A stretch of 64,000 bases of DNA, from the NCBI GenBank assembly GCA_963761335.1, contig CAVXGR010000009.1, positions 58,545 to 122,544 of the forward strand, in the 5' to 3' direction. The stretch comes from an uncultured delta proteobacterium (GTDB lineage Bacteria > Desulfobacterota > Binatia > HRBIN30 > BPIQ01). Below, one piece after another: positions 3,759 to 64,000 of the stretch; the stretch's first letter is position 1, and every line of letters starts with the position of its first letter. The notes below the pieces were generated by a model that worked only from the letters and a program-made list of their open reading frames with translations, ran no database searches and was not told where the DNA came from. Both the position numbers and the translations under genes were made by a program.

Positions 3759-3813
3759 TTCACCGCGGGACAGCGTGACGTCGGCGGCGGCTCTGTGCTA
3801 GGCTCCGCGGCGC

Positions 3814-4278: not shown

Positions 4279-4819
4279 CTGCCTCGAGGACCTTCGTCGA
4301 AGCGGCGGGCTCGAGGTCGATGTCCAGCGTCTCCATGAGACGCGCCATGGTCATGTAGAACCCGATTGCCAGGATCAGCTCGACGATCTCCTGCGGCGAG
4401 AAGGATTTCTCCATCTCCCCGAAGGTGTCGTCACACACCCGCACGTCGCGCACCAGCTCGGTGGTGAACTCGAGCAGGAGCCGCTCTCTGTCGCTGAAGG
4501 AGTCGGCATCGACGTCGCCTTCGTCGAGCGCCTGGATCTGCTGCGGAGTCACCCCGACCGCCTCGGCGATGGCAACGTGCTGCACCCACTCGTATTCCGC
4601 CGGCGAGAGCTTGGCGACCTGGAGAATTGCCAGCTCCCGCAAGCTGGCATCGAGCTTCTGCTGGGAGAGAATCACCGACCCCAGGCGCAGCAGAGGCCGG
4701 AAGCAGGTCTCGGCGTGCGCCATCAGACGGAAGATGTTCAGCTTGACCGGAAGCTCGTCGAGCGTCTTGCGGACTTCCTCGGAGGCCTTCTGCGGATCTG
4801 CGTAGGGAATACGAGCCAT
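4253..4819 (-). CDS. Carboxymuconolactone decarboxylase / AhpD family protein
   Basis: LRELAILQVA...YEWVQH...ERLLLEFTTEL; RBS GGAGG before MARIPY. Confidence 0.85.
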   Translation of the reverse strand: MARIPYADPQKASEEVRKTLDELPVKLNIFRLMAHAETCFRPLLRLGSVILSQQKLDASLRELAILQVAKLSPAEYEWVQHVAIAEAVGVTPQQIQALDEGDVDADSFSDRERLLLEFTTELVRDVRVCDDTFGEMEKSFSPQEIVELILAIGFYMTMARLMETLDIDLEPAASTKVLEAARTTRASS

Positions 4820-4894
4820 GGCATCCTCCTGGCTCTGCACGATGGGCGCAATCCGCGGGAGGCGCAAGCTCCGCCGCGGCGCCGGCGCCGGCGG

Positions 4895-6501: not shown

Positions 6502-6510
6502 GGCGATCGC

Positions 6511-43421: not shown

Positions 43422-46133
43422 ATGATGGAAGCGGAAGCGGTGCTCAGCGGGGATCTGCAAATCGTCTCGGATGCGGGGTCCGTGCAGGAAAATGGAAATC
43501 GCGCAGCGTACCCTGCCGGCATCGAGAAAACCGAAGCCTTCCAGTTCCTCACCTCCCTGGCACACCGCAAGACCGGCGCCATCCCCGCCTCGCTGCTGGC
43601 ACGACACGTCCTCGGCGTCACCGCCGACGCCGACTGGCCGGTGCGGCGCGCCGCGATGGATGCGGTTCTGCGCCGCTGCAGCTTCGGAAAGCAGGACCGC
43701 CTCGAGCTGGCGTCGGCGCCACGGGGTGTCTTCGGAGTCTATCGCACGCGGCGCGCCGGCTCATCGCAGCGTCCCTATGCGACCTTGTTGGCGAGCATCG
43801 ATCCGATTCGCGGCAGCTGCGACTGCCCGGACTACCTGCGCAACTCACTCGGGGTGTGCAAGCATCTGCTCACCATCGTCGAGTCTCTGGCCAAGAACAA
43901 GCGCCGCTTCAAGTCGGCCGTGGGCGCAGGAGGCGCCGGTCAAAACGGGTCTGTACGCCTCACCTGGGACCCGGTGCGGCCACTCAGGGCCGAGGGTGAC
44001 TGGATGAGCCGGGTGCAGCTGCTCGGCACCCGCGGTGCCGGCGTCAACGGCGCCGACCCGCTGGGCCGCCTCGCTCGGCGGTGGTTCCGCCGCCAGGCCG
44101 ACGGCGGGCTCGTCTTGGCGCACACGTACGCCGATCAGCCCGAGCGCCGCCTGGCCCTGGCGAAGGACCTGCACCTCGCGGCGGGCGCTGGCGGGCGCGG
44201 CGCGCGGCGCTGGCAGACTTCGGAGCCTGCAGTGCAGGCACTGCTCACCGCCGAGGTCAACCGCCTCCAGCGAGTGGTCGACGTGCGCGCGGCCGTGCCG
44301 GAGACCGAGCGGGCTCTGCGAAAGATGAAGCGCCGTCTCTACCCCTACCAGCTCGAAGGGGTGGCGCGGCTGCTCGCTTCGGGGCGCCTGCTGCTCGCCG
44401 ACGACATGGGGCTCGGGAAGACGGCACAGGCGATCGGCGCCTGCCACGCGCTCTGGGCAGTGGGGCGCGTGAAGCGCGGGCTGCTGATCGTGCCGGCGAG
44501 CTTGAAGCCGCAGTGGCTGCGCGAGTGGCAGTCGTTCACCGATGCGCCCGCCGCCGTGGTCGAGGGCGGCGCCGCGGAGCGCCGTTCCATCTACCGCGAT
44601 ACGCGCAGCGGCTTTCTCGTCGCCAACTACGAGCAGGTGCTGCGCGATCTCGAGGCGATGCACGCCTGGCAGCCCGACATCGTCGTCCTCGACGAGGCAC
44701 AGCGGATCAAGAACTGGGCGACGAAGACCTCGGCGTACGTGAAGCGCCTGCAGCCCGCCTATCGCTTGGTGCTCACCGGGACGCCGATGGAGAACCGGCT
44801 GGAGGAGCTCGCCTCGCTGCTCGACTGGGTCGACGACCAGGCGCTGGAGCCGAAGTGGCGCCTCGTGCCCTGGCACGCGGTGGCCGCCGACGGCTCCAGG
44901 GGTGTGATCGGCGCCCGCAACCTCGACACCCTCCGCCGGCGCCTGGCGCCGTGCATGATCCGCCGCGTACGCCAGGAGGTTCTGCGGCAGCTCCCGCCCC
45001 GGACCGACACCATCGTGCCCGTGCCGATCACCGACGAGCAGGCGCAGAGACACGACGAGCTCGACCAGCCGATCGCACAGCTCCTGCGCATCGCGCAACG
45101 CCGCCCGCTGAAGCAGAAGGAGTTTCTGCGCCTCATGAGTCTGCTCACCGCACAGCGGATCATCGCCAACGGCCTGGCGCAGGCGGACTTCGCCGGGGTG
45201 TGGCCGCAGATCGCCGGCGCCACCCGACCGGAAGGGGCACTGCTCGGCAGCCTCTCGAGCCCGAAGCTGCTCGAGCTGCGCGAGATCGTCTCGCAGGTGG
45301 CGCTGCAGCAGGGGCGCAAGCTGGTGGTCTTCAGCCAGTGGCGCCGCATGCTGACGCTGGCCAGCTGGGCGATCGCCGACCTGCTCGCCGACAACGGCTT
45401 GCGCTCCGCCTTCTTCACCGGCAAGGAGGGACAGAAGCGGCGAACGCACAACATCGTCGATTTCCACGATGATCCGTCCACGCGCGTGCTCTTCCTCAGC
45501 GACGCCGGCGGCGTCGGCCTCAATCTGCAGCACGCCGCCAGCTGTTGCGTGAACATCGAGCTGCCGTGGAACCCCGCCGTCCTCGAGCAGCGCATCGGCA
45601 GGATCTATCGCCTCGGCCAGAAGCGGCCGATCGACGTCTACAACCTGGTGACCGAGGACAGCATCGAGGCGCGCATCGCCGGCCTGGTGGCCGACAAGCG
45701 CGCCCTCTTCCGCGGCCTGTTCGACGGCGACAGCGACGAGGTCAGCTTCGACCGCTCCGGCTCGTTCCTGTCGCGGCTCGAGCAGATCGTCGAGCCGGCA
45801 CCGGAGCCCGACCTGCCGGACGACGCCGACGGTGGCCAGGAGGGGGAGACCCCGCTGGCGCGGGAGCTCGACGAGATCATCAGCGCCTCCGACGAGTCGC
45901 AGGACGCCGAGCTGGCGGCGGCACCGCCGCAGAGGGACGCTCCGGCGGTAGACGTGCCGTCCGCCCCGCTGCCCGCACCGGAGGTTCGCAACCTGTTCGC
46001 GCAGCTCCAGATTCGCCCCCGCGATGGCGGCGGCATGGTCATCGAGGCGCCGCCGCAGGCCGCGTCGACACTCGCGGCCCTATTCGAAGGCATGGCGCAG
46101 ATGCTGCGGACGGCGGCGCCGGAGGGAGAGTGA
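43422..46133 (+). CDS. SWIM zinc finger + SNF2-family helicase/ATPase
   Basis: CDCPD...CKH SWIM; LADDMGLGKT, DEAQRIKN, LTGTPMEN, WNPAVLEQRIGRIYR. Confidence 0.92.
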   Translation: MMEAEAVLSGDLQIVSDAGSVQENGNRAAYPAGIEKTEAFQFLTSLAHRKTGAIPASLLARHVLGVTADADWPVRRAAMDAVLRRCSFGKQDRLELASAPRGVFGVYRTRRAGSSQRPYATLLASIDPIRGSCDCPDYLRNSLGVCKHLLTIVESLAKNKRRFKSAVGAGGAGQNGSVRLTWDPVRPLRAEGDWMSRVQLLGTRGAGVNGADPLGRLARRWFRRQADGGLVLAHTYADQPERRLALAKDLHLAAGAGGRGARRWQTSEPAVQALLTAEVNRLQRVVDVRAAVPETERALRKMKRRLYPYQLEGVARLLASGRLLLADDMGLGKTAQAIGACHALWAVGRVKRGLLIVPASLKPQWLREWQSFTDAPAAVVEGGAAERRSIYRDTRSGFLVANYEQVLRDLEAMHAWQPDIVVLDEAQRIKNWATKTSAYVKRLQPAYRLVLTGTPMENRLEELASLLDWVDDQALEPKWRLVPWHAVAADGSRGVIGARNLDTLRRRLAPCMIRRVRQEVLRQLPPRTDTIVPVPITDEQAQRHDELDQPIAQLLRIAQRRPLKQKEFLRLMSLLTAQRIIANGLAQADFAGVWPQIAGATRPEGALLGSLSSPKLLELREIVSQVALQQGRKLVVFSQWRRMLTLASWAIADLLADNGLRSAFFTGKEGQKRRTHNIVDFHDDPSTRVLFLSDAGGVGLNLQHAASCCVNIELPWNPAVLEQRIGRIYRLGQKRPIDVYNLVTEDSIEARIAGLVADKRALFRGLFDGDSDEVSFDRSGSFLSRLEQIVEPAPEPDLPDDADGGQEGETPLARELDEIISASDESQDAELAAAPPQRDAPAVDVPSAPLPAPEVRNLFAQLQIRPRDGGGMVIEAPPQAASTLAALFEGMAQMLRTAAPEGE

Positions 46134-46259
46134 ATTCACTCGGGTCAGGGCGGGCCCGCGGCTGGAACCCTGGGGAAGCCGGGTTCAACCCGAGGAAACG
46201 CGAGACGCCTCGGGGGTCGCGCCGCAGATCGGCGCGGGGGAGGAAACGGGGGGGCGCCT

Positions 46260-46377
46260 CGGGGGTTGCGCCGCGGAGCGGCGCGGGCATGTAGCCCCGG
46301 GTCGAAGACCCGGGGGACAGCGTCGGCCCTCCCCGACGCGCCCCGCAGGGGCGCCGGCACGGTTTTGAGACAGCCTC
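46260..46377. repeat. GTAG-type REP-like palindromes plus a single GTTTTGAGACAGCCTC end
   Basis: GGCATGTAGCCCCGGG...CCCGGGG; GCGCCCCGCAGGGGCGC; matches the 7735-7750 end. Confidence 0.65.
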
Positions 46378-46417
46378 TGAAGCCCGGGGATCCGTGTTTA
46401 ATTGACGTCCAGCCCTC

Positions 46418-47359
46418 TCAGCCGCCGCTGCTCCGAAAGACAGGTTGTGGCGGCACACGGTACGCGAAGAGCTCCGCGCCGCAGGCCGAGACGATGAAGA
46501 CGGCGCCGACGAGCTCGCACGCCCCGAAGGGCTCTCGAGTCAGCACGGCGGCGGAGACGAGGCCGATCACCACCTCGAGCATGAGGAGCACTGCCACACG
46601 CCCCGGATCGAGCCGACTGCCACCGAACACGGTCAGCCAGAGGAGCAGCGGCATCCACACGAGGCCGAACACCAGCAGCCAGGTGGCACCGCGCAGAAAG
46701 ATCTCCGGCGCCGGCAGCATCCACGGGCGGCCACCCGGAAGCTGAGTGAAGATCACGAACAACGCCCCGAGAAACAAGAATTGCACGAACACCTTGTCGA
46801 ACTCCGAGGCGTGCGGCGCAACCCGACGCAGCGCCACCATGGACCCGGCCCACAACAGGCCCGACATCAGGCCCATCCATTCCGCTGCCGAGCGCGGGGC
46901 GGGCACGCCGGCGCCGATCCCGAAGACGACGAGCATCCCCGCCAACCCGAGAGCAATCGTGGCGAGGCGAGCCCTGGTTATGGGGTCACCGAGAACAAAG
47001 TACGCCAGCAGCGTGCTCCATACCGGCGTCAGATAGAAGAGCAGAATGACGCGGGCGACGTGGCCGCGCAGCAATGCCTCGGCGTAGAGCGCAATGCACG
47101 CCGCCATGAGGAAGCCCGCTCGCACCAGCGGCCAGCCGCCGGCGGCGATCGACCGCCGCCGGGTCACGCCGAACGGCGCCAGAAACAACAGCGGGATCGC
47201 GAAGCCGGCAGCGGTGGCCCAGGGCCCCCCGAGCCCCACCTCATTGAGATGGCGAAGTGGAATCCACAGAGTGCCCCAGAAGAACGCCGACACCAGAATC
47301 GCAGCGCTCGGGGCGAACGCCGCCGAGCGCGCGCCCGCAGGCTCCGCGCTTCCATCCAT
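46418..47359 (-). CDS. DMT (EamA) family transporter
   Basis: FFWG, LLFYLTPVWS..LA..VLG, LEVV; ~10 TM. Confidence 0.88.
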   Translation of the reverse strand: MDGSAEPAGARSAAFAPSAAILVSAFFWGTLWIPLRHLNEVGLGGPWATAAGFAIPLLFLAPFGVTRRRSIAAGGWPLVRAGFLMAACIALYAEALLRGHVARVILLFYLTPVWSTLLAYFVLGDPITRARLATIALGLAGMLVVFGIGAGVPAPRSAAEWMGLMSGLLWAGSMVALRRVAPHASEFDKVFVQFLFLGALFVIFTQLPGGRPWMLPAPEIFLRGATWLLVFGLVWMPLLLWLTVFGGSRLDPGRVAVLLMLEVVIGLVSAAVLTREPFGACELVGAVFIVSACGAELFAYRVPPQPVFRSSGG

Positions 47360-47384
47360 CACCGAGCGGCCGCGCCGCGGCGAG

Positions 47385-48188
47385 CTACTGGCGCCGCGCG
47401 ATGAAGCGTCCCTGGGCAACCTTGCCGGCGTGCGCCAATTCCCGGATGAAGGCGAACTCGCCGGCCACCGCCTGCAGCGCCTCCATGTTGAAGCCGATGA
47501 TTTTCAGCGCATCGAAGGTGAGCTGCATGTCGACCATGTTGAGATAGAGATCGATGTAGGCCGGAAAGCGCGCCGTGTCTTCTGCCGCCACCACCGTGCA
47601 GCCGTTCTCCTCGAGCAGTTGGCGATAGCCGGAAAGGTCCTGCACGTTGGCAAACTTCATTCCCTTCAGGAAGCGCTCCGCCTCCGCGTCCGAGAGACCC
47701 GACGGGCCCTCGATCCAGTCGGTGAAGGCGATCGTGCCGCCCCGTTTCACCAGACGCGCCGCCGCCGCGATGAGCTTCGGCTTGTCGGTCACGTAGCACC
47801 AGGCATCCTCCCCCCACACGAAGTCTGCGCTGCCGTCCGGCAGACCGCTGTTGCAGACGTCGCCGAGCACGAACTCAATGCGGTCATCGACGCCCTCTTC
47901 CTGACAGCGGGCGCGACCGCGATTCACCACCGTCTCGGTTGCATCCACGCCGGTCATCGCGGCGACGTCGCGGAAATGGACGAGGAAGCGCATGCCGGCG
48001 CCGTTGCAGCAGCAGAGGTCGACGCCGCGCATCCCCGCGCCGACACCCGCCCGCTCGGCCAGATCCATCGACGATTTGAAGCCGCCGATGTGGATCTGCT
48101 GGCCCATCAGAAGCTCCCACAGGTCTCCCTCCTGGCCGTTGTACACTGCGGTGACATCGTTCAGCCCGACGTTGTCAATGGATTTCAT
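47385..48188 (-). CDS. SAM-dependent methyltransferase (N-methyltransferase-like)
   Basis: IHIGG, DLCCCNGAG, DFVWGEDAWCY, IAFTDW. Confidence 0.8.
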   Translation of the reverse strand: MKSIDNVGLNDVTAVYNGQEGDLWELLMGQQIHIGGFKSSMDLAERAGVGAGMRGVDLCCCNGAGMRFLVHFRDVAAMTGVDATETVVNRGRARCQEEGVDDRIEFVLGDVCNSGLPDGSADFVWGEDAWCYVTDKPKLIAAAARLVKRGGTIAFTDWIEGPSGLSDAEAERFLKGMKFANVQDLSGYRQLLEENGCTVVAAEDTARFPAYIDLYLNMVDMQLTFDALKIIGFNMEALQAVAGEFAFIRELAHAGKVAQGRFIARRQ

Positions 48189-48378
48189 GCGCGCTTTTCC
48201 TCCAACGCGCACTCCCTACCGAATGGTTGGAAGGCCGGATATGACCGCGATCACGCGATGCGACGACGAACATCAGCGCGAACACATGATCATTCATCCT
48301 TGGACCGCGGCTCGGTGACCCCAACAGCGGTCACTTCCCGCCCCTCGCCAGAGGCGCCCGTGGGCGAAGACGGCGCTC

Positions 48379-49134
48379 TCAGCCGCCCAGCTTGCTGAGC
48401 ATGAAAGAAATGAGAAACCCGGCGACGGTGATCAAGCCGGCGAAGTCGTGGGCGATGGAGAATGCCTCGGGGATCATGGTGTCGACGAGCATCGCCAGGA
48501 TCGCGCCTGCGGCCGTGGCGATGGTCGCCGCGATGAGGCCCGGGGAGGAGCCGTCGAAGGCCCAGTAGCCAAAGAGCGACGCGACCCCGGAGAGAGCCGT
48601 GATACCGCCCCAGACGCCGAAGATGTACGCCGCGGGGCGGCCCGCCTTCTTCATGCCGGCGACGCTCGAGAGTCCTTCGGGAACGTTCGAGAGGAAAATT
48701 GCCGCCACGGCCACCAGGCTCACGGAGCCGCCCTCGAGCAGGCCGAGGCCGATGACCATGGACTCGGGAACCCCGTCGAGCAGGGCACCGACGGCGATCG
48801 CCAGGCCGCTGCCATTCTCCTCCTCCTCGGACGGCTGCTGATCCCCGGAGCGTTTTCGGTGGCGCGCACCGCATCGCGCCAGCAACCAGTTCGCGGCGGT
48901 GTACACCACCGCTCCCCCGAGGAAGCCCGCCGCAGTGCCCGCGAAGCCGCCGCGGCGATAGGCATCGTCCATGAGCTCGAAGGCCAGTGCCGATATGAGG
49001 ACCCCGCTCCCGAAGGCCATGATCGCCGCAATCAGACGCTGCGGCACCTCCATCAGGTAGGCCACCGCCGCGCCGATCAGCAGCGCGCAGCCGGCCAGCA
49101 GCCCCCAAAGTCCCGCTTCGACCCAAACTGGCAT
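48379..49134 (-). CDS. ZIP family metal transporter
   Basis: MAFGSGVL, LDGVPES, SNVPEG, DTMIPEAF. Confidence 0.9.
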   Translation of the reverse strand: MPVWVEAGLWGLLAGCALLIGAAVAYLMEVPQRLIAAIMAFGSGVLISALAFELMDDAYRRGGFAGTAAGFLGGAVVYTAANWLLARCGARHRKRSGDQQPSEEEENGSGLAIAVGALLDGVPESMVIGLGLLEGGSVSLVAVAAIFLSNVPEGLSSVAGMKKAGRPAAYIFGVWGGITALSGVASLFGYWAFDGSSPGLIAATIATAAGAILAMLVDTMIPEAFSIAHDFAGLITVAGFLISFMLSKLGG

Positions 49135-49281
49135 CGGGCAACTTTCTACATCGTCCAGGACTGCCGCGTCGAGACACACAGCGTGCCCATCGATCCTGGA
49201 AGCGCTCGCGTTCGCCGATGCCACATGTTCGCCTGTGCCACATTGACTGCCCCTGCCCGTTTACCTAGAGTCCGCCCCGTC

Positions 49282-49545
49282 ATGCCGAAAGCAGGCGACG
49301 GTACCGAATCGCGCTTCGTCTGGCGGCTGGTCGACGACGAAGCGTTGATCTTCGACCTCCGGTCGGGCGGCTTCTTCTCCCTCGATCGCGTCGGGGCCGA
49401 GGTTTGGACGGGGCTCCAGGGCGGATTGGAGCTGGCGCAGATCGTGCGCGAGATCGCGGGGAAATACGGCGTCGACGAGCAAACGGTGCAGCAAGACGTA
49501 TCCGAGCTGCTCGACGAGCTGAGCCGGGAAGGATTGATGGAGTGA
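49282..49545 (+). CDS. PqqD family / RiPP recognition element (RRE) protein
   Basis: 87 aa: WRLVDDEALIFDLRSGGFFSLDRVGAEVW...IVREIAGKYGVDEQTVQQDVSELLDELSREGL. Confidence 0.9.
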   Translation: MPKAGDGTESRFVWRLVDDEALIFDLRSGGFFSLDRVGAEVWTGLQGGLELAQIVREIAGKYGVDEQTVQQDVSELLDELSREGLME

Positions 49546-49548
49546 GCA

Positions 49549-49713
49549 ATGGCCAAGGCAGACCGCACCTCGACCGAGAAACGCGGAGACAAAGCGGAAA
49601 AGACTCCTCCTGAACCCCGTCACCCTGCGGCGACCCCGGTGTACGAGAAGCCGCGTCTCCGGCGCTACGATCAGATCGACCAGGTCAAACCCTACGGCCC
49701 GACCGAGATCTGA
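49549..49713 (+). CDS. Putative RiPP precursor peptide, 54 aa: MAKADRTSTEKRGDKAEKTPPEPRHPAATPVYEKPRLRRYDQIDQVKPYGPTEI
   Basis: Translated by hand (below the ORF-track cutoff); ATG 3 nt after the PqqD stop, preceded by GGAG; YxxPxL RRE-binding motif. Confidence 0.8.
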   Translation: MAKADRTSTEKRGDKAEKTPPEPRHPAATPVYEKPRLRRYDQIDQVKPYGPTEI

Positions 49714-49736
49714 GAACCGGCTCGCCCCAGTTCTGG

Positions 49737-51377
49737 CTAGAGAAGCTTCTGGATCTCGACGGCGCCGCGCGCGATGAGCTCGCGGAGCTCTTCGAGATGG
49801 CGCGCCTCGAGATCGGGATAGGGCCGCACGTCCGTGTCCGAGATGATCTCGATGTCGCGCAAGGAGAAACGAGCCAGTAGATCGCCGGCCGCCGCTTCGA
49901 TCTCCCGCGCCAGCGCCGCCGCCCGGCCGCCGCGCTCCGCCGCTCGGCGCCGAAGCTCTGTCAGCGTCTCCAGGTACCTCAGGTCGTAGAGTCCCGCGCT
50001 GAGGCCCTTCCACTGCAGCGTCGGAACACTGCCGCGCCGGGCCGGATAGGTCGCCAGGTGATCCTTGAGGGGGTGCCCTCCCGAGACAGCCCGCTCGTGA
50101 CTGTCCCATTCGTCGAAGTCGTCGTACGGCGAGTACGGGTGCTCCGGCAGATGCTGGTAGCAATACGGCGCGATCCCGTCGGCGCCGCTCTTCCAGAAAT
50201 AGATTCCCGCCAGCACGCGGTGCACGAGCGGCTTCTCCATGTGCGCGTGCCAGTAGAAATAGGTCGGGCGCCGCCGCAGCTCCGGAGCCTCGGACAGCAA
50301 AGAGAAGTACTCGCGGTTGCGCGGCAGGTAGTACAGCAGGATATCCGGCGGATGCCCGATATCGCCGGCGTCGAACAGGCGCCGCGCGAATTGCTGTTGG
50401 ACGAGCGCGCACATTGTCGGTACTCCCCGGCGCTTCGCCTCGCGGGTTTTGGCGATGTGCGCGGCCACGGCGTCAGGTCCGCGTGTGTCCATCTCGTCGC
50501 TGACATAGAGAACCGGCTGCATGCCGTGGAAGTCGACGGCGTCCAGCCGCGGCGGGTACGGATCCGTGAGCACGACTCTGCCCCGGAAACCGATCGCATA
50601 CGCGATGTCGACGGCGCGCTGCAGCAGCTCGGGGTCGCCCTCACCCAGCGAGATCGTGCGGAAGCCGTGCGCGTAGATGTCCTCCAGCTGCGTCCGGAAC
50701 AGCTCTTCCGACAGGTAGAAGCGCGGCCGCCCGCAGTCGAGGGTGCCGCGATACCAGAGAAAGCAATCGCGCCCGGACTCCGCCAGCATGAGCGGCAGCA
50801 CTTCGACCTCCAGCGGCAGGTCGGCGCTGCCGAGCGCCGGCACCACGGAGCGGACGCGCAGCGCGCCGCAGTAACGTCCCACCGCTGCGCCCGTGGGAAT
50901 GCGCAGGGCGATCCACAGCTGTTGCGTTCCATTTCGGTCGAGCGCGGTGCGCGCGGCGCCGTGCAGGCGCAGATCCGGCGGCGTGTAGAAAGGACCGCGC
51001 CGCCGATAGTGCCGCCAGTGCCTGCAACGGCCGCCGTACCCATCGCGCAGATCGGCATCCGCGTCCTTGAGTAGCAGCTCCGCGACCCGTACGCGGCTCG
51101 ATTGATAGACCCCGACCCCGGCCTGGTCCCATTCCCGGACGGCGAAGACATCGATCGCGGCGCTCGGGATGACGCCGCCGGCGTCGTCGCGCAAGTCGGA
51201 GACATCGATGACCACGTCGCGCATCGCCTCGCGGGCACGGAGAGACACGGACAGCGACACCATCTCACCCCGGCAACCGGTCCCGCTCAGTCGCGAGATC
51301 GGCGTCGCATCAGCCGCCGGGGCGCCGGGCAGGTGACGGACAAGGGCCAGCCACGGCGGCGGCTCCGCGATGGTCAT
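49737..51377 (-). CDS. Glycoside-hydrolase-like protein (GH123/DUF4091-like architecture), function unknown
   Basis: N-terminal RGE.VS.SVS beta-sandwich-like region, QLWIALRIP...GRY.G, C-terminal WKGLSAGLYDLRYL; no signal peptide. Confidence 0.5.
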   Translation of the reverse strand: MTIAEPPPWLALVRHLPGAPAADATPISRLSGTGCRGEMVSLSVSLRAREAMRDVVIDVSDLRDDAGGVIPSAAIDVFAVREWDQAGVGVYQSSRVRVAELLLKDADADLRDGYGGRCRHWRHYRRRGPFYTPPDLRLHGAARTALDRNGTQQLWIALRIPTGAAVGRYCGALRVRSVVPALGSADLPLEVEVLPLMLAESGRDCFLWYRGTLDCGRPRFYLSEELFRTQLEDIYAHGFRTISLGEGDPELLQRAVDIAYAIGFRGRVVLTDPYPPRLDAVDFHGMQPVLYVSDEMDTRGPDAVAAHIAKTREAKRRGVPTMCALVQQQFARRLFDAGDIGHPPDILLYYLPRNREYFSLLSEAPELRRRPTYFYWHAHMEKPLVHRVLAGIYFWKSGADGIAPYCYQHLPEHPYSPYDDFDEWDSHERAVSGGHPLKDHLATYPARRGSVPTLQWKGLSAGLYDLRYLETLTELRRRAAERGGRAAALAREIEAAAGDLLARFSLRDIEIISDTDVRPYPDLEARHLEELRELIARGAVEIQKLL

Positions 51378-52573
51378 CGGGCGCCCAGATCCTGCATTGC
51401 CGGGCCGCTGTGACGCTCGAGCAGCTCCCCGGCAATCAGCTCGTCGATCAGCTCGTCGAGATCGGCCGCCGCGGTCGCCGTGGGTATGTCGTATTCGGTC
51501 GCGACCCAGCTGAGAACTTCGTCCCGGGCGCGCTCGCAGGCGAGAAGTCGCCAGACACGGTCTGCCGTGCCGTCGAGCACAAAGCGCTGGCGCGCACCCG
51601 GCTGCACGACGACGGATCTCGGTCGATCATCGTAGAGCCAGTAGAGCGCCTGCGGCGAGATGCGCAACCGCATCCTTTGGGTCCACGTGAACCACGGCCT
51701 GAAGGCCGCGTCGACAGCGCTCGGCTGGATCGGCTCGAGCGGCGGCGCGAGACCGAAGCGCTGGGCCAGCCGCTGGAAGCGGAAGCCGAGACGGTAGCTG
51801 AGCGATTCCAGGACCTCTTCCGGGCGGCGGCCCAGGTGGACGTCTCGAAACGTGGTCCGCGCACCATGCGAGAGATACAAAGCCTCGATCTGCGCCGCAC
51901 CGCGCCCATACCAGAATCCCTTGGTGACGAAGCGCAGCCAGGAGCGGCCCTCATAGTGCGTGGCCGGTGCGCCCTCCACGTAGCCGAGGCGGTAGCCGCG
52001 CGCGATGATTCGCCATGACAGCTCGACGTCCTCGCAGGCGACGAGACGCTCGTCGAACCCCCCCACGCCTTCCAGCGCCGCACGCCGGTACATACAGCTC
52101 CCCGTCGACAGCCACGGGAAGAGATCGCGCTCGCCGCGGACGGAATTCGCCGCGTCGCGTTCGGCCGACTGCGCCGGCGAGCGCTCCAGGTAGCGTTGCA
52201 CGCGCGCGTCGAGTGCCCGGTGGTCGGTTCGGCCCTGGCAGCCGCCGAGCCGAGGATCGTCGAAGCGCCCCGCCAACCGCCGCACCCAGTCCGCGCCGAC
52301 GACCACGTGCGCGTCGAGAAAGGCGACGAGGGCCCCGTGCGTCGCCCGCAGCCCGGCGTTGCGGGCGGCGCCCCGGCCTCGCCGCGGCTCCGGCAACACC
52401 TCGGCACCGTGTGCGGCGGCGACGCAGGCAGTGGTGTCCGTCGAGGCGTTGTCGACGACGCAGATTCGCAGCGGCCCGGGATAGTCCTGCCGGCGGAGCG
52501 CGTCGACGCAGGCCCCGACGCGACCGGCTTCATCGCGCGCCGCGATGATCACGTCGACGGCGGGAGCAGACAT
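51374..52573 (-). CDS. GT2 glycosyltransferase fused to a C-terminal PqqD/RRE domain
   Basis: VVDNASTD, AARNAG, FLDAH, GGFDE...EDVELSWR; C-term FVLDGTADRVWRLL...YDI...ADLDELIDELIAGELL. Confidence 0.85.
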   Translation of the reverse strand: MSAPAVDVIIAARDEAGRVGACVDALRRQDYPGPLRICVVDNASTDTTACVAAAHGAEVLPEPRRGRGAARNAGLRATHGALVAFLDAHVVVGADWVRRLAGRFDDPRLGGCQGRTDHRALDARVQRYLERSPAQSAERDAANSVRGERDLFPWLSTGSCMYRRAALEGVGGFDERLVACEDVELSWRIIARGYRLGYVEGAPATHYEGRSWLRFVTKGFWYGRGAAQIEALYLSHGARTTFRDVHLGRRPEEVLESLSYRLGFRFQRLAQRFGLAPPLEPIQPSAVDAAFRPWFTWTQRMRLRISPQALYWLYDDRPRSVVVQPGARQRFVLDGTADRVWRLLACERARDEVLSWVATEYDIPTATAAADLDELIDELIAGELLERHSGPAMQDLGAR

Positions 52574-52591
52574 GGGAACGCCCATCCCGAA

Positions 52592-53614
52592 TCAGCCGGA
52601 AAGCTCCGAGTCGAGCAGCGCCGGCAGCCGGGGCAGATCATGGTCCGCGAACTCCAGGACATACAGGCGCGCGTCGCGGACGAGCGCGGCGACGGCGGCC
52701 AGGATGAACTCGCTGTACTGAGCGAAGGGATAGGGGGCCGAGCGAAACGGGCGCGCCCGAAACACGGTCATGGTTTCGCGCAGCAGGTCCTCAAGGGCGC
52801 GACCGCGGTCGAGCTTCGACAGAGTGGGCCGGGCCACCGGACCTCGCCGCAGCTGGATGAAGTCAGTGACCCGGCTCGGCTCCCGCCAGGACGTCCCGCG
52901 CGGAAGTTGTCCGAGGCGCACCGCCCACTTCCCGCCTTCATCGCGCTCGCCCACGACCTGCGGCTGAAGCGCCGGGAACATCCGCAGCGTGGCCTCGGTG
53001 ACATGCAGGGCATCGAGCGAGGCGAGCGCATAGGCGCAATCGCCGTCGAGGGTGATCAGTGTGCGGTCATCCGAGAGCAGATCGTAGCCGGCGAACAAGA
53101 GCTGGACTGCCGTCGTCGATTTCCCCGCTCCCGGCGCACCGGCCAGCAGAAGCGTCCGCTCGCCCCTGCGGAGCCCGGCGGCATGGATCGTTGCCAGCCG
53201 GTAGAAGGGCATCAGGAAGCCTTTGAGAATCGGCCGGACGACGTAGGCGAGCACCCATTGGGGGCTCTCCGTGTATCGTCCGGCGAGATTCGCTCGCACG
53301 ACGTCGTCGTCGAGACCGTACTCCATCTCGTGCCAGAGGTGCGCATGGTTCTCCGAATAGAACCGCCCGGCCTCGTAGTAGCAGGGGCCGAGCCCCAGAT
53401 GCGTCTCCGCGAAGGCGCCGCGCTCCATCGCCGCGATCGGCAGGGCGTGCTCGGAATCCTTGCGCTCGAGGAGGATCCGCAGCCGTCGCACGTGCGCGGG
53501 GAAACGGCTGGTCAGATCGTTCGACACGTACAACCGCTCCACCCACGGAGCGAGGTCGAGGCTACGACTCTCGATATCGAGTCTCAGAAAATGAAGGACG
53601 AGCTCGGTCTTCAC
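52592..53614 (-). CDS. HPr kinase-like P-loop kinase
   Basis: IHAAGL...LLLAGAPGAGKSTT...LLSDD motif set. Confidence 0.8.
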   Translation of the reverse strand: MKTELVLHFLRLDIESRSLDLAPWVERLYVSNDLTSRFPAHVRRLRILLERKDSEHALPIAAMERGAFAETHLGLGPCYYEAGRFYSENHAHLWHEMEYGLDDDVVRANLAGRYTESPQWVLAYVVRPILKGFLMPFYRLATIHAAGLRRGERTLLLAGAPGAGKSTTAVQLLFAGYDLLSDDRTLITLDGDCAYALASLDALHVTEATLRMFPALQPQVVGERDEGGKWAVRLGQLPRGTSWREPSRVTDFIQLRRGPVARPTLSKLDRGRALEDLLRETMTVFRARPFRSAPYPFAQYSEFILAAVAALVRDARLYVLEFADHDLPRLPALLDSELSG

Positions 53615-55010
53615 GGATGTCTTCCGGATGGAGCAGGCGGTCGATGGTGACAGCGAGCTGGTCGCTCCCCGCCAGCGCCAGGGTCAATCTGCAGAGATCG
53701 TACTTCGCTCTGAAGGCGTCGTAGTACTGGGTGTGAGGACACTCCGCTCGGGCCCCGAAGGCGTCGCGCAGCGCACGGAGCCGCTCGAACGAGTCGTCCG
53801 ACAGCCGCTCCTCCGCGACGACCGTCCGCAGCACGGCGTCGAGCTCTGCCGCGAGTGCCTGGAACTCCTTGAAGACGGTTATCGGCGTGAGGCTTCCCTG
53901 ATCCTCCAGATCGCTCAGCAGCCGGCGCATGGCCGCGGGATCGACGGGGCCGGCACTGCGGTACGAGCGGTCGATCTCGGCGATTGCGGCGCGAAAGCGC
54001 CGCAGCGATTCGTCCCAGTCATAGGCGGATCGTATGGTGTCGAATCCTCCCCGCCGCACACGCTCCTTCAGCGAATCGTCGCGCAGCAGCGACGCGAGCC
54101 TGGCGTGGAGATCCTGCGGATCGTTCGGACGGGCGAGCACGAGGTTGACGCCGTCGATCCCGTAATCGGACACGCCGTAGGTGCGGGTCGAGACCACCGG
54201 CACGCCGCAGGCAAATGCCTCGAGGGCGGGGAGCCCCAACCCCTCATACCAGGAGGTGCAGCAGTAGACGTCGCAGGTGCGCAGAATGCCCGGCATCTCC
54301 TCCTCGGTTGGGCAGTGGTGGATCTCGACCGGAAACGGCAGCCCGTCGAAGAGCCGCCGCCCGCGCTTTTCCTGCGTGACCAGCACGAGCTCCACCGGCC
54401 TCTCGACCGAGAGGCGCCGGAGCGCCTCGATGCCGTCCTTCATTCCCTTGTAGGGCATCAGGTAGTTGCCGACCATCAGCACGCGCGCCCGCGCCGCGAG
54501 CCTGGCTGGGCGCGGAGACACCGAGAAAATCGTCTTGTCGATGCCGACCGGCACATGGATCGATTCCTTGCCCAGTCGCTCTTTGATGAGGCGCTGCACC
54601 GCTCGCGAGCTGGCGATGATCGGCACCGGCAGGCGGTAGAGGTTGGCGAACGCCGGGGATTCCGCCATGAAGTCCGCGAATGTCGGGCCAGCGGCGTGGT
54701 GGAACGCCTCGTAGTCCTGGCAGAAGAAGATCGCCCGCGCCCTGCCCAGCAGCGGCAGGACCATCGGCAGGAGAAAGGCGTTCGCGACCAGCACGAAGTC
54801 GTAGCTGGGCAGGTCGGCTTGTTCGAGATCGCGCATCGGCAGGAGCGGTGCGCGAAGCCTGCACCAGCGCGGCGGACCGGCGAAGGAGAACAGATGGACC
54901 GACTCGTCGACGTCTGCCAGGCGATTGGCGATCTCGAATACGACCTTCACCCCGCCGCTGAGCGCAGTCGTCGGTAGACAGAAGAGGAGCCGCTTACGAG
55001 CACCGTCCAT
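53562..55010 (-). CDS. GT4 glycosyltransferase (WsaF-like N-terminus)
   Basis: SGGVKVVFEIANRL, FCQDYE, KG..DG, SWYEGLGLPALEAFACG. Confidence 0.88.
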   Translation of the reverse strand: MDGARKRLLFCLPTTALSGGVKVVFEIANRLADVDESVHLFSFAGPPRWCRLRAPLLPMRDLEQADLPSYDFVLVANAFLLPMVLPLLGRARAIFFCQDYEAFHHAAGPTFADFMAESPAFANLYRLPVPIIASSRAVQRLIKERLGKESIHVPVGIDKTIFSVSPRPARLAARARVLMVGNYLMPYKGMKDGIEALRRLSVERPVELVLVTQEKRGRRLFDGLPFPVEIHHCPTEEEMPGILRTCDVYCCTSWYEGLGLPALEAFACGVPVVSTRTYGVSDYGIDGVNLVLARPNDPQDLHARLASLLRDDSLKERVRRGGFDTIRSAYDWDESLRRFRAAIAEIDRSYRSAGPVDPAAMRRLLSDLEDQGSLTPITVFKEFQALAAELDAVLRTVVAEERLSDDSFERLRALRDAFGARAECPHTQYYDAFRAKYDLCRLTLALAGSDQLAVTIDRLLHPEDIREDRARPSFSETRYRES

Positions 55011-55091
55011 CGCTGGCGATACTAGCGGCAACCGCCGACGTCCGGAAGTAGACGACTTCTGATGGCACTGCCCTAACTTGGGCTGGGGGAT

Positions 55092-55311
55092 CGCGCCGCG
55101 AAGCGGCGCAGGCATGTAGCCCCGGGTCGGAGACCCGGGGATCCCGGGTCCGCCTTCCCCGATGCGCCCCGCCAGGGGCGCAGGCGTGCAAGCCCGGGGG
55201 CAGAGGCCTGTGTCAAAACCGCGCCCGCGCCCCTGGCGGGGCGCCAACGGACGTCGCCTTCGGGATCCCCGGGTCTCGACCCGGGGCTACACGCCTGCGC
55301 CCCTCCGGGGC
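55092..55311. repeat. GTAG-type REP-like doublet with an internal GAGGCCTGTGTCAAAAC end, between divergent operons
   Basis: GGCATGTAGCCCCGGG...CCCGGGG and its inverted partner CCCGGG...CCCGGGGCTACAC. Confidence 0.7.
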
Positions 55312-55399
55312 AAATGATCTCCGAGCTCAAGGCCACAGATGCAATAGGACAGTACTCTTTTGATTCCTACATTCGAGTTCAATACAGTCGCGCGCGCCG

Positions 55400-56446
55400 A
55401 TGTCCGATTCCGACGCAAGACCGATCGTGAGTCTCTGCCTGGGGGCGTACGCCGGCGCCGATCGGGCGGCAGCAAATCTGTCCCTCACCACCGGGCTCTC
55501 CCGCCACGTCACGCTCTCGAGCTCGGATCCGCGCAGCCCCGAGGTCGCTTTCATGGTCGCCCACCTGCGCGAGCGGCGTCCGGCGCTGGTGATCTTCAAT
55601 GGCTGGAGCGCCGTCTACGCGAGCATCCTCACCGCCTTGCGCCGCCAACCGATCCGGTTCGCCGTCCTCTGGCACAGCAGTCCGGGCCAGACTGATCTGT
55701 CGGACGAGTGGCCGGCGCTGTCGGAGATCATCGGCAACCGCCGCATCGCGCACCTGCTGTTCGCCAACGAGTCGCTGCGCGAGACACTTGCCCCGCGACT
55801 GCGGAACACCCACCATCTTCCCGACACGCTCGCGGAAGCCGAGTGGGAGGGCCAGCGTGAGGATCATCCCCCTTCCCGCACCGGTCGCGCGCGGCGCGCG
55901 CAGATCACGCTCTTCGCCCAGCCGGCCGAGGCGGCGCGCAAGAACATCACCGGCTGCTTGCTGGCGCTCTCCAGCCTGCGAAGCCGAATCGTCCTCCATC
56001 TCAATGGGCTGTCGCACCAGCCGCGCTACCGCATGCTGCTCGACCTGCTCGGCATCCGCTACCGGGACTGGGGCTGGATGGAGCCGCAGCGGTACGCGGC
56101 GGTCGTGGGCGCGGCCTCCGTCGGCCTGCAGGTGTCGTTCGCCGAGACGTACGGGTACGTCGTCGCCGAACATCTCGCACGCGGCGTCCCGACCGTCGGG
56201 ACCTCTGCGGTTCCGGTCCTGGCGCGATTGTCCCCGGCCGTGCGCCGTCGTCTGATGGTCACCAACCCCGACGATCCCGGCGAGATTCGCGCCAAGCTGC
56301 GCTTCCTGCTCGACCATCCTCGCCTTGCGGCGACGGTCGGCGAGCGCGCGCGCCTCGAGTCGTCCCGCTGGAACCGGCGGGACATCGCCAAGGCGACTGA
56401 CGTCCTGCAGGCGCTGCTGTCGCAGAGAGGCAAGCTGGCATCATGA
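55400..56446 (+). CDS. GT-B (GT4-like) glycosyltransferase
   Basis: RKNI, QVSFAETYGYVVAEHLARGVP. Confidence 0.75.
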   Translation: MSDSDARPIVSLCLGAYAGADRAAANLSLTTGLSRHVTLSSSDPRSPEVAFMVAHLRERRPALVIFNGWSAVYASILTALRRQPIRFAVLWHSSPGQTDLSDEWPALSEIIGNRRIAHLLFANESLRETLAPRLRNTHHLPDTLAEAEWEGQREDHPPSRTGRARRAQITLFAQPAEAARKNITGCLLALSSLRSRIVLHLNGLSHQPRYRMLLDLLGIRYRDWGWMEPQRYAAVVGAASVGLQVSFAETYGYVVAEHLARGVPTVGTSAVPVLARLSPAVRRRLMVTNPDDPGEIRAKLRFLLDHPRLAATVGERARLESSRWNRRDIAKATDVLQALLSQRGKLAS

Positions 56447-56724
56447 GGCAGTGCCGCAACCAGCCGCGATTTGTGGTGAGCCCCACCATCGCGCACCGCG
56501 AGATCGGCGGCACGCTGCTGCTCCTGCTGCCCGGCGACAGTCGTCTCTATGCGTTCAACGATACCGGACGCCTGGTCTGGCGCGGCCTGCTGCGCAAGCG
56601 CAGCACCGCGAGCATCGCCGCGACGATTGCCAGAACCTTCGGGATTCCCCTGCCGCGCGCCGAGCGGGATGTGCACGATCTGCTCGAGGATCTGCTGCGC
56701 CGCGGGGCGATCCGCCGTCTCTAG
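56443..56724 (+). CDS. PqqD family / RRE protein
   Basis: REIGGTLLLL...LYAFNDTGRLVWRGL...IA..F.I...AERDV.DLLEDL.RRGAI. Confidence 0.88.
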   Translation: MRQCRNQPRFVVSPTIAHREIGGTLLLLLPGDSRLYAFNDTGRLVWRGLLRKRSTASIAATIARTFGIPLPRAERDVHDLLEDLLRRGAIRRL

Positions 56725-56777
56725 AGAGGGCCGTCCTTGCGCCGAGCGAGCGAGGTTTGCCATACTCCGCCGGCCGC

Positions 56778-57923
56778 ATGACGGAACCGATCGCCCAGAC
56801 CGTCGACCCGTCGCCGGCGCCGTTCGCCGTCTGCACGATCATCTGGAAGAACTACCTCGCCCACGCGCGCGCGCTCGGCCAGTCGCTTCGCGCCCAGCAT
56901 CCCGACATCCCCTTCATCGTGCTCCTCGCCGATCGTGTCGACGGCTACTTCGACGCCGCCCGCGAAGACTTCGAGGTCGTCGAGATCGAGCAGCTCGGCA
57001 TCCCGGAGGTGCGACGGTTCTGCTTTCAGTACTCTCCGTTCCTGCTCAACACGGCGGTGAAACCGTGGTTGCTTGCCTACCTGTTGGCACAGCGCGGAAT
57101 GCGCCGCGTGCTCTATCTCGATGCCGACATCCTGGTGCTCGATTGTCTCGCCGATCTCGCCGCGCTGCTCGACCGCTACTCGATCGTATTGACCCCGCAC
57201 CTGACGGCGACGGCCACGGACCCGTACACGGTCGCCAGCGTCGAGCGGGCGATGCTGCTCTTCGGCGCCTACAACCTCGGCTTCATCGGCGTCGGACGGT
57301 CCGAGACCACGGATCGATTCCTCGTCTGGTGGCAGGACCGCCTGCGGCGGGACTGTCTCCTGGATCCGCCACGGGGCCTGTTCGTTGATCAGAAGTGGAT
57401 CGATCTGGTGCCCGGGCTCTTCGACGGCGTCCACGTCCTGCGCGATCCGACGTACAACGTGGCGCGCTGGAATCTCCATTCCCGAGCCCTCACCATTCGG
57501 GACGACCAAGTGCTCGTCGACGGCATGCCGTGCCGATTCTTCCATTTCAGCGGCTTCGATCCTCGCTGCGGTGAGGTGGCGAAGGGCAATCGGTTCTACA
57601 CGTTCGAGCGGCTCGGCGAGGCGGCAGTCCTGTATCGGCGCTATGCCGAGATGCTGCACCGCAACGGCTTCGCGGACACCATCAACTGGCCGCAGGCATT
57701 TTCGGTCTTCGACAACGGTGTGCCGATCCCCGATGAGCTGCGGATGCGGTACCTGGCGATGGGTGACGAGGTCGCGAAGTTCGGCGACCCGTTCGCCAGC
57801 GCGCCGCCCGACAGCTTCTACTGCGCCTGGCGCGCCGAGCAGGCCGGCCTTCGACCACTGGTCGATCGGCTGCGACGGACCGTGGCGCGCGCCGCCTGGC
57901 GCGTTCATACAAGACTCCGATAG
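56778..57923 (+). CDS. GT-A glycosyltransferase (GT8-like)
   Basis: CTIIWKNYLAHAR, NTAVKP, YLDADI, YNLGF, DQKW.DL, YNVARWNL, FFHFSG. Confidence 0.85.
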   Translation: MTEPIAQTVDPSPAPFAVCTIIWKNYLAHARALGQSLRAQHPDIPFIVLLADRVDGYFDAAREDFEVVEIEQLGIPEVRRFCFQYSPFLLNTAVKPWLLAYLLAQRGMRRVLYLDADILVLDCLADLAALLDRYSIVLTPHLTATATDPYTVASVERAMLLFGAYNLGFIGVGRSETTDRFLVWWQDRLRRDCLLDPPRGLFVDQKWIDLVPGLFDGVHVLRDPTYNVARWNLHSRALTIRDDQVLVDGMPCRFFHFSGFDPRCGEVAKGNRFYTFERLGEAAVLYRRYAEMLHRNGFADTINWPQAFSVFDNGVPIPDELRMRYLAMGDEVAKFGDPFASAPPDSFYCAWRAEQAGLRPLVDRLRRTVARAAWRVHTRLR

Positions 57924-57932
57924 GCTCGCCGG

Positions 57933-58946
57933 ATGGTGCCTCCCCGCTTGGCGCGCCTGCGCTATCTGATCGTGGCGCCGGCGTTCCAGGCCTGGGATCT
58001 CGGCCGCTACTGCGAACGCCTGCTGCGCGCCGATCGCCTGGCGTGTGCGACCTTCGCCTACGGCGAGCGCCCGGGTGCGGAGCAGGAGACCCGGCTGCTG
58101 GAAGCGGTGCAACAGTTCCGTCCCCACATCGTCCTGGCGCTCAAGCTCCAGGGTATTCGGCCGCAGACGCTCGCGGCGATCCGCCGGCACGCCTTCGTCG
58201 CCCTCTGGTACGTGGACTGCTTCGGCGAATTCGTGCCCCGGTGGCTTGCCCCCCTGCTCGCCCATGTCGACATCTTCTTCACCAGCGCCGCCGGCTTGGT
58301 GCCGCTCTATCAGCGGCACACCGCCGCGCCGGTTCGCTGGGTGTACGAAGGCGTTCATCTGCCGAGCTTCCCGCGGCTGCGCGAGTCGACCGAGCGGCTC
58401 GCAGCGTATCGCAGCGAGGTGGCGTTCGTCGGTAACGTCCGGCACTCCGTCACCGCCACGCCGGCGACGCGCCAGCGCCTGCTGCTCGCCGTCCACCGCC
58501 GCTTCGATCTGCGGATTTGGGGACCGCAGGGACTTCCGTTGGACGCGCGCACGCGGCGGCTGCGGGTGACCGAGTGGCCGGCCTACAATCGAGAGCTCGC
58601 CCGCATCTGCGCCGCCGCCGCGATCGTGCTCGGCATCAACGAAGTGAACACGGTGGAGCGCTACTTCTCGAACCGCACCTTTCTCACTCTCGCCAGCGGC
58701 GGCTTTCACCTGACGCGTTACGTCCCCGGGCTGGAGCGCATGTTCGAAAATCGCCGGCACCTGGTCTGGTTTCATTCCGACGACGAGTGTCTCGAGCTGA
58801 TCCGCTATTACCTGCCGCGGCCGCGCGCGCGCCACGCCATCGCGCGACGTGGCCAGGCATGGACGCGACGGCGATACGGCATGCGCCGGAGCTGGCGGCG
58901 GATACTCGCGGCCATCGACGACGTCTACCCGCGGCGCGGCCCCTGA
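57933..58946 (+). CDS. CgeB-like glycosyltransferase (Glyco_trans_1_2)
   Basis: LWYVD, VAFVGN, LRIWG, IVLGIN...SNRTF..LASGGF.LT. Confidence 0.8.
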   Translation: MVPPRLARLRYLIVAPAFQAWDLGRYCERLLRADRLACATFAYGERPGAEQETRLLEAVQQFRPHIVLALKLQGIRPQTLAAIRRHAFVALWYVDCFGEFVPRWLAPLLAHVDIFFTSAAGLVPLYQRHTAAPVRWVYEGVHLPSFPRLRESTERLAAYRSEVAFVGNVRHSVTATPATRQRLLLAVHRRFDLRIWGPQGLPLDARTRRLRVTEWPAYNRELARICAAAAIVLGINEVNTVERYFSNRTFLTLASGGFHLTRYVPGLERMFENRRHLVWFHSDDECLELIRYYLPRPRARHAIARRGQAWTRRRYGMRRSWRRILAAIDDVYPRRGP

Positions 58947-58971
58947 GCCATCGCTCCCAGCGGTTGCCGGC

Positions 58972-60661: not shown

Positions 60662-60777
60662 TTGCGTCTTGGATGACCTAGTCGTCGCGTCGATGCGACA
60701 GGCGCTGATATCGCATGCATCCACCGCGGAGCGACTTTCGTGAGCCATCGGCTTACGGCGCGCAATCACCCGGGTGC

Positions 60778-62925: not shown

Positions 62926-62931
62926 TGTCCC

Positions 62932-63942: not shown

Positions 63943-64000
63943 ACCGTCCGGCGGCTGTGGATTGAAATTCCGGGAGGCTCGGGCGCCGCGCCAGCGGACG

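Follow-up and report, generated by a model that had tools for sequence, protein, structure and literature searches.

The stretch of DNA considered here, called the window, comprises 64,000 nucleotides of contig CAVXGR010000009.1 from an uncultured delta proteobacterium (assembly GCA_963761335.1) and ends at the contig end (64000). It carries a gene for a glycosyltransferase (GT) of family GT2 fused to a RiPP recognition element (RRE; RiPP, a peptide made by the ribosome and modified after translation), which we call GT2-RRE. The gene (51374..52573, minus strand) is an intact open reading frame (ORF) for 399 residues, starting with ATG at 52573 or with an alternative ATG at 52585, and is the third gene of a tightly packed minus-strand run. 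The first gene of this operon encodes a GT4 glycosyltransferase with a conserved C-terminal extension (53562..55010) and the second an HprK-like kinase (52592..53614). The last encodes a protein of 546 residues with the fold of glycoside hydrolase family 123 (GH123), similar to beta-N-acetylgalactosaminidases (49737..51377); its start overlaps the stop of the GT2-RRE gene (ATGA). Facing the run on the plus strand is a stand-alone RRE of the PqqD type (49282..49545, 87 residues, PF05402 with 58.4 bits). Three bases after it starts an ORF of 54 residues (49549..49713, plus strand), a putative precursor peptide with the motif Y-x-K-P-x-L at Tyr32 and a predicted core YGPTEI that begins at Tyr49 (49693-49695). 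These genes are referred to as the cassette.

The motifs of the kinase are intact: the histidine (H144), the Walker A loop (residues 159-166) and the paired acidic residues (S181-D182-D183). The GH123-fold protein matches 17 GH123-type entries with Z scores of 20.7-23.7 (TM ~0.6), compared to 13.3 for the next family. Its D294-E295 pair, positioned at the end of a barrel strand, is invariant (13/13) and also found in four distant relatives. The Asp-Glu motif of the GH123 family is catalytic and specific for 2-acetamido sugars (PMC11087588).

GT2-RRE is a real, soluble fusion of a GT2 and a PqqD/RRE domain. An earlier note on this DNA had read the gene as a GT2 domain followed by a PqqD-like C-terminus of ~85 residues (~51410-51670), and this is borne out, with both domains passing the Pfam cut-offs. 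Residues 8-168 correspond to PF00535 (83 bits, cut-off 23.3) and residues 321-384 to PF05402, PqqD (38.2 bits, cut-off 23.4, E 1.9e-9), the complete RRE covering residues 303-388 (51410..51667, minus strand). The AlphaFold2 model has a mean pLDDT of 87.6 and a pTM of 0.86. Its C-terminus consists of three strands (310-314, 319-324, 329-334) followed by three helices (335-345, 350-361, 365-381), which is the winged helix-turn-helix that an RRE should have. The modelled residues 303-388 overlay the lasso RRE TbiB1 (5V1U) with Z 14.0 and a root mean square deviation of 1.5 Å over 84/84 residues, and TbiB1 is also the top match among the sequences of solved structures when the C-terminal part is used alone (E 1.4e-4). 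No membrane segment is present, the highest 19-residue hydropathy being 1.24. Both domains occur in 19 of 22 near relatives (39-83% identity), the other three being short (239-366 residues), and a chance junction or an assembly artefact was rejected as the origin of the fusion on the basis of these 19 relatives.

The PF00535 match and the fold matches of the model support a GT-A fold for the catalytic domain (residues ~4-232; 51878..52564, minus strand). The canonical DxD motif is not present; its position is occupied by D87-A88-H89 (DxH). For a wider comparison 45 further full-length representatives (50% level) were picked by coverage from the best 150 rows of a profile search; 31 of these match PF05402 at E 1e-5 or better. 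The DxH motif was found in 21/21 covered close relatives and in 42/45 of the distant ones, and in none of 97 plain GT2 matches, of which 95 have DxD or NxD. As judged from the alignments, DxH is a variant of DxD and not a loss of the motif, and it is invariant in the aligned fusions. In a 48-row fusion alignment D87, H89, D182 and H206 are invariant. D182 is at the catalytic base position in all 48 fusions, and the Glu-Asp pair to which it belongs (E181-D182) is also found in 77 of the 97 plain GT2 matches. We presume the catalytic roles of D87-A88-H89, of E181-D182 as putative base and of the distal H206 from what is generally held about GT-A motifs. In a quick tree of catalytic domains, from which six fusion rows (P0002, P0008, P0021, P0151, P0152, P0161) were omitted, 57 DxH fusions fall together beyond a branch with an SH-aLRT of 90, separate from both MftF and the fusions of the DxD type. 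The FLDAH stretch of GT2-RRE is also present in polypeptide N-acetylgalactosaminyltransferase 1 (GalNAc-T1).

The leader pocket of the fused RRE was examined by using the residues that hold the YxxP motif in LppB, which are D70, F74, L32, Y60, M78, L83, V35, V67 and N33 (PMC13381572). Mapping by motif spacing suggests a uniform offset of 301 and places L333, Y361, D371, L375, L379 and L384 in the pocket of GT2-RRE. In a solved RRE the leader Tyr is held by an Asp. Its counterpart D371, which would form a hydrogen bond with this Tyr, is conserved in 45 of the 48 aligned fusions. Position 375 is Phe or Leu in 47, position 333 Leu or Phe in 45 and position 361 Tyr or Phe in 46 fusions; L379 is kept in 44, and position 384 is hydrophobic in at least 47. 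From these positions the Tyr-binding pocket appears largely, but not fully canonically, preserved.

The putative precursor belongs to a family of which 38 distinct peptides were collected. Residues are numbered as in lasso peptides, in the register Tyr(−17)/Pro(−14)/Leu(−12) (PMC10368454), by which the start of the core is predicted. Invariant are Tyr−17, Lys−15, Pro−14, Gln−7, Ile−6, Val−3, Tyr+1 and Gly+2. The N-terminus is variable, and the core of 4-9 residues is nearly invariant. It comes in two types, YGP(S/T)E in 24 peptides and YGVD in 14, position +4 being Ser in 23 peptides, Thr in one (that of the window) and Asp in 14. All 12 matches of a homologue search with a single peptide end in YGVD. 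Since YGVD takes the place of YGP(S/T)E, Tyr+1 is the sole core hydroxyl that the two types share. Cysteine is absent from the window peptide and from the conserved part of the 38 peptides.

The association of GT2-RRE with the other cassette genes was investigated by comparing loci (L001-L159). Thirty of these hold a full-length fusion, and of them 26 have the peptide, 25 a stand-alone RRE, 26 the HprK-like kinase and 19 the GH123-like gene; one of the 26 peptide-bearing loci (L011) has a peptide of a different type. The remaining 129 GT2 loci have a greater median length. Among them no peptide and no GH123-like gene were found, a stand-alone RRE was present at one locus and the kinase at two, and both of these kinase-bearing loci hold a fusion-family gene cut by a contig end. 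Four fusion loci have no peptide: in two of these the sequence stops at the gene, the third is a contig of 4.3 kb, and in the fourth ORFs resembling insertion sequences follow directly downstream. In two genomes whose fusion loci were without the GH123-like gene it was found on other contigs. The flanking GT genes vary from locus to locus, and the genes for peptide, RRE, kinase, GT4 and GH123-like protein are constant. NTP (nucleotidyl) transferase genes of family PF14907 occur within or near the cassettes at L001, L002, L009, L083, L096, L207 and L208, and an extra GT2 gene resembling PF13704 lies between or beside the RRE and the GH123-like gene at 8 of 15 clustered loci. The cassette of the window has neither of these, and PF14907 genes are present elsewhere in its genome.

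The same set of genes is found in a distant branch. In the order of genome G061 (Candidatus Obscuribacterales), DxH fusions with 32-36% identity to the window protein are present in 4 of 107 genomes. At two loci (L207 and L208) the RRE, peptide, HprK-like kinase, GT2, GT4, NTP transferase, GH123-like protein, GT2-RRE and GT4 are encoded in one cluster, with a gene order that differs from that of the window. Of 251 genomes searched in the class, three have the peptide (G395, G396, G397), all among the four fusion-bearing genomes, and in each of them it ends in YGVD; the three are kin (57-60% enzyme identity) and not independent. In G395 the pair of GH123-like and GT2-RRE genes and the group of RRE, peptide and kinase genes lie on separate contigs, and both are kept. 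The peptide was not found in G061 itself, a partial assembly of 3.0 Mb that has two DxH fusions. The enzymes of the YGVD branch have the same catalytic motifs as those of the YGP(S/T)E branch and belong to the same clade. In the HprK-like kinase of G061 (L010 2396-3406, minus strand) the sequence of the paired acidic site is S-D-N.

The cassette seems to be rare, with a patchy distribution. Loci in named genomes come from Acidobacteriota, Abditibacteriota, one Chthonomonadales and one Acidimicrobiia record, to which metagenome contigs are added. Beyond the seed genomes the cassette was not found in 60 relatives, 300 genomes of the phylum of the window, 250 of the phylum of G061 and 300 of the phylum of G063, and the three large searches scored 6-7 candidates per genome, so that absence is not established by them. 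A peptidase similar to S24/S26 was not detected by tblastn with three queries at 35 loci, a good many of them short, and in window positions 46001-64000; remote peptidases might escape such a search. No exporter is conserved among the 15 clustered loci; an ATP-binding cassette (ABC) transporter is present at L007.

The earlier note proposed a ribosomal peptide as the sugar acceptor, and by association this has good support: the YxxP peptide, the stand-alone RRE and the HprK-like kinase occur together with the fusion in both deep branches, and next to plain GT2 genes they are missing. We consider it quite likely that the 54-residue peptide is a substrate at some step. In the mechanism that we suggest, for a cassette that would make a linear glyco-RiPP, the fused RRE would bind the Y-x-K-P-x-L leader of this peptide and present the short C-terminal core to the GT-A site. 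The metal site formed by DxH and H206 would bind an NDP (nucleoside diphosphate) sugar, and D182 would act as the base in transfer, with inversion, to a hydroxyl group of the core. The likeliest acceptor would be the phenol of Tyr+1 because it is the only hydroxyl common to both core types. The HprK-like peptide kinases LppK (PMC13381572) and BsfK (PMC10368454) reject Tyr in S3Y substrates, BsfK accepting Thr, which would leave Tyr+1 to a GT. The sugar could be a beta-N-acetylhexosamine (beta-HexNAc), a weaker suggestion derived from the tightly linked GH123-fold protein, whose Asp-Glu pair resembles that of enzymes acting on 2-acetamido sugars. GT4 would extend the glycan, a phosphate would be added by the kinase with the stand-alone RRE feeding it, and the GH123-like protein would trim, remove or transfer the glycan. 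For leader-guided O-glycosylation of Tyr+1 by GT2-RRE, probably with beta-HexNAc, the chances seem about even, and our judgement is equally balanced on whether the first sugar is placed on Tyr+1. Should it be placed there, HexNAc would be somewhat favored as its identity. A role of GT2-RRE as priming enzyme of the cluster, also put forward in the earlier note, is plausible; the occurrence of three GT2-RRE fusions at one Omnitrophota locus (L011) implies that a fused RRE alone does not mean first sugar.

Several observations weigh against the proposed glycosylation of Tyr+1. The locus counts include near-duplicates, the loci counted also served to build the profiles, and the 48-row alignment omits four of the 45 distant relatives, three of them of the DxD type. 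The likeness to GalNAc-Ts is one motif, with E values of 0.02-0.2, and in fold matches to GT2-RRE polysaccharide and lipid GTs outrank both GalNAc-Ts and SunS. The wall of the leader pocket of the fused RRE varies at position 334 (D15 E11 N4 A4), 336 (T14 S12 V11 A6) and 368 (A21 L10 V8 I7; n=48), due to which its affinity or specificity may not be that of lasso RREs. To a kinase unable to use Tyr the YGVD core offers no Ser or Thr, only Thr−2 being available; alternatively, the kinase could have acquired Tyr+1 as its target in evolution and act on it first. Conservation of Tyr+1 may also serve recognition only. NTP transferases are often found near the cassettes, whose surroundings in the window are full of GT genes for surface glycans, and the kinase acts first both in the system of linear polyphosphorylated peptides (LPP; PMC13381572) and in pseudomycoidin formation (PMC6993621).

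In view of the latter, the order of the reactions could be reversed, with the HprK-like enzyme phosphorylating Tyr+1 or Ser/Thr+4 and GT2-RRE subsequently glycosylating the phosphate or extending a sugar placed by the NTP transferase or GT4. GT2-RRE would still be guided by the leader, but would not be the priming enzyme. GT2 enzymes that glycosylate a phosphate are known in the form of polyprenol-phosphate GTs. Phosphorylation is the primary LPP modification (PMC13381572), pseudomycoidin is hexosylated on phospho-Ser in a PsmN-dependent manner (PMC6993621), there are PF14907 genes within L207 and close to L001 and L002, the kinase motifs in the window are intact, and the three fusions at L011 would fit as well. 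However, the PF14907 gene is absent from the cassette of the window, though not from its genome, LppK and BsfK reject Tyr, and the invariant D182 (48/48) suits a hydroxyl acceptor that needs deprotonation, at least by the mechanism commonly presumed for such an Asp. Furthermore, GH123-type enzymes cleave O-glycosides of HexNAc (PMC11087588) and not sugar phosphates. All in all we find this order of events rather unlikely, while giving it serious weight. Glycosylation could also occur on Ser/Thr+4 in the YGP(S/T)E branch, in the manner of a GalNAc-T or glycocin GT, and on another residue in the YGVD branch. A hydroxyl is present at +4 in all 24 peptides of the first type, the S-to-T change in the window is conservative, and the DxH motif is common to GalNAc-Ts acting on Ser/Thr. 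The 14 YGVD peptides lack this hydroxyl, yet their enzymes share the catalytic motifs and the clade, and position +4 is more simply explained as the site of the kinase, considering that BsfK accepts Thr (PMC10368454). This makes +4 a very improbable sugar acceptor.

A different possibility is that the C-terminal domain is a docking or regulatory module, which binds the peptide as an effector or binds the kinase or GH123-like partner, whereas the acceptor is a lipid-linked or free glycan of a surface polysaccharide. The cassette is indeed flanked by genes for GT4, GT2 and membrane GT-like proteins, epimerases and a Wzc-like protein, the fold is matched best by polysaccharide and lipid GTs, no conserved peptidase or exporter was found at the loci examined, and RREs can also potentiate enzymes (PMC12710340). 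Against such a role stand the lack of a membrane segment in GT2-RRE and the variation of the flanking GTs per locus, which contrasts with the constancy of the genes for peptide, RRE, kinase, GT4 and GH123-like protein. The strict Tyr-Gly, 17 residues past the leader Tyr, fits a modification site, and we regard a docking function with a glycan acceptor as distinctly unlikely. It is also conceivable, though doubtful, that the peptide is no precursor of a released product but a reusable cytoplasmic primer or carrier of glycans. The aryl glycoside Tyr-O-beta-HexNAc would be made by GT2-RRE and extended by GT4, after which the retaining GH123-fold enzyme would release or transfer the glycan, with the kinase as a gate. 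Such a peptide would be the ribosomal counterpart of glycogenin or of lipid sugar carriers. This fits the absence of a conserved peptidase or exporter, the invariant core of 4-9 residues and the surface-glycan neighborhood, as well as the tight pairing of the GT2-RRE and GH123 genes, which are adjacent even where the peptide is elsewhere (G395).

If leader-guided glycosylation of Tyr+1 is correct, GT2-RRE would be a leader-programmable Tyr O-glycosyltransferase, which is rare chemistry and could be useful in the preparation of glycopeptides. Such an activity would also be relevant to the products of the many modules of RRE and HprK inside polysaccharide loci. The RRE-fused GT is here paired with a short, defined and genetically encoded candidate substrate, and the prediction reaches the level of a single residue, Tyr+1.

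Some further features of the window and of its genome (G000) are worth recording. Contig C28 of G000 (3635-6776) carries a 99.2% identical copy of window positions 49229-52370, including the RRE, the peptide, the GH123-like gene and most of GT2-RRE. The copy would be a strain variant or a duplicate. Its left flank is different and the shared stretch begins sharply ~50 bases before the RRE start, which suggests a cassette boundary. Between the divergent GT4 genes a dispersed repeat of ~275 bp (55071-55344) is found, similar to a miniature inverted-repeat transposable element and with internal inverted symmetry, of which 26 copies with at least 89% identity occur on 15 contigs. A second stand-alone RRE (56443-56724, plus strand) lies among GT genes (55400-58946); no adjacent peptide was found, and its neighbors are not conserved at related loci. 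Two GT4 ORFs (60715-62925, plus strand) resemble a single gene split by a frameshift close to 62300. A membrane GT-like gene (58972-60769, minus strand) is apparently broken into three frames. These interruptions (58972-62925) look like sequencing error or decay.

Related clusters were encountered as well. The same genome encodes a second GT2-RRE fusion, of the DxD type (L162 2418-6814; G000 C12 ~496400-500800), together with a stand-alone RRE, a YxxP peptide ending in G-S-P (Ser at Tyr +18, in register with LPP), an S24/S26-like peptidase, an HprK-like kinase and a GT4; this cluster is closer to LPP than the cassette of the window. Among 13 PqqD matches in G000, some RRE ORFs at C4, C11, C12 and C16 (L188, L193, L195, L201) extend into a tail containing YxxP and lie near HprK-like and NTP-transferase genes. 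The Omnitrophota locus L011 (50-16795) is another undescribed cluster. Besides its three GT2-RRE fusions it encodes two stand-alone RREs, three YxxP peptides, two radical SAM (S-adenosylmethionine) enzymes, an HprK-like kinase, a methyltransferase, ABC proteins and an NTP transferase with an S26-like N-terminus.

Fusions of RREs with glycosyltransferases, including PF00535, have been noted computationally in one sentence each of the RRE-Finder paper (PMC7470986, 2020) and of a later study (PMC12710340, 2025), the relevant sections of which give no peptide, cassette or activity. A description of the cassette, or of the substrate or activity of an RRE-fused GT, was not found in the open literature searched; the image supplements of PMC7470986, the supplementary figures and tables of PMC12710340 or subscription papers could hold one. 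Literature on YGPSE is unrelated by title, and a search combining RiPP, GH123, glycosyltransferase and precursor peptide gave nothing.

Among characterized GTs, the catalytic domain is most similar to MftF (TIGR03965), its best NCBIfam match. Membership was rejected in view of the score (134 bits, cut-off 280) and a position outside the MftF clade in the quick tree; MftF has DxD or NxD instead of DxH, and the cassette has no radical SAM enzyme. The polypeptide GalNAc-Ts of family GT27 resemble GT2-RRE in the DxH motif (FLDAH in GalNAc-T1) and in combining a catalytic domain with a C-terminal domain that holds the substrate. GT27 enzymes carry a ricin-type lectin domain at this position. In GT2-RRE it is replaced by the RRE, a GT2-type Asp is at the base position and the sequence likeness is weak. 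The GT2 enzymes SunS/ThuS, IgtG (PMC11912497) and Cao8/Cao16 (PMC8068269) likewise apply a GT2 fold to a ribosomal peptide. Cacaoidin carries an O-glycosylated Tyr, for which GT2-dependent glycosylation has been proposed with GT2 genes nearby (PMC8068269). The available sections of that paper show no RRE for the cao cluster. IgtG modifies the lasso peptide in its mature form, and the main text of its paper does not use the term RRE (PMC11912497). SunS is a distant match to GT2-RRE (E 3e-4, Z ~15). Glycocin precursors contain Cys and are disulfide-bonded, and S-glycosylation is reported for glycocins; membership of the glycocin GTs was rejected because the window peptide and the conserved part of the 38 peptides have no Cys.

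The lasso systems PsmK/PsmN (PMC6993621) and BsfK/BsfB1 (PMC10368454) share with the cassette a lasso-type RRE, the Tyr(−17)/Pro(−14)/Leu(−12) leader and an HprK-like kinase with a paired acidic metal site, which in PsmK is a required pair of Asp residues (PMC6993621). They differ in that the cassette has no B2 peptidase or cyclase, a core too short for a ring, and as sugar enzyme a GT2 with its own RRE. Membership of the lasso family was rejected: the B2 family PF13471 was not at the cassette in five genomes and not found at all in two of them, and no asparagine-synthetase match was obtained among the proteins scanned. LPP (lppA-K-B-S-D-N; PMC13381572) resembles the cassette in its discrete RRE, HprK-like kinase, YxxP leader, lack of a lasso cyclase and GT-rich surroundings. 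The leader register is similar too, with Pro at +3, an aliphatic residue at +5 and Ile at +11 from Tyr. The LPP core genes for an SpI-like peptidase, an NTP transferase and an exporter resembling MsbA were not found in the window cassette, and the long, variable LPP core with Ser at position 3 (Tyr +18) differs from the nearly invariant cassette core of 4-9 residues, in which Tyr +18 is Gly in 38/38 peptides; membership was rejected on these grounds. Unlike LPP, the cassette has the GT2-RRE fusion and the GH123-fold protein as core genes and no Bacillota among its named records. LPP is the closest known system, and the cassette would work in the manner of lasso and LPP tailoring without belonging to either.

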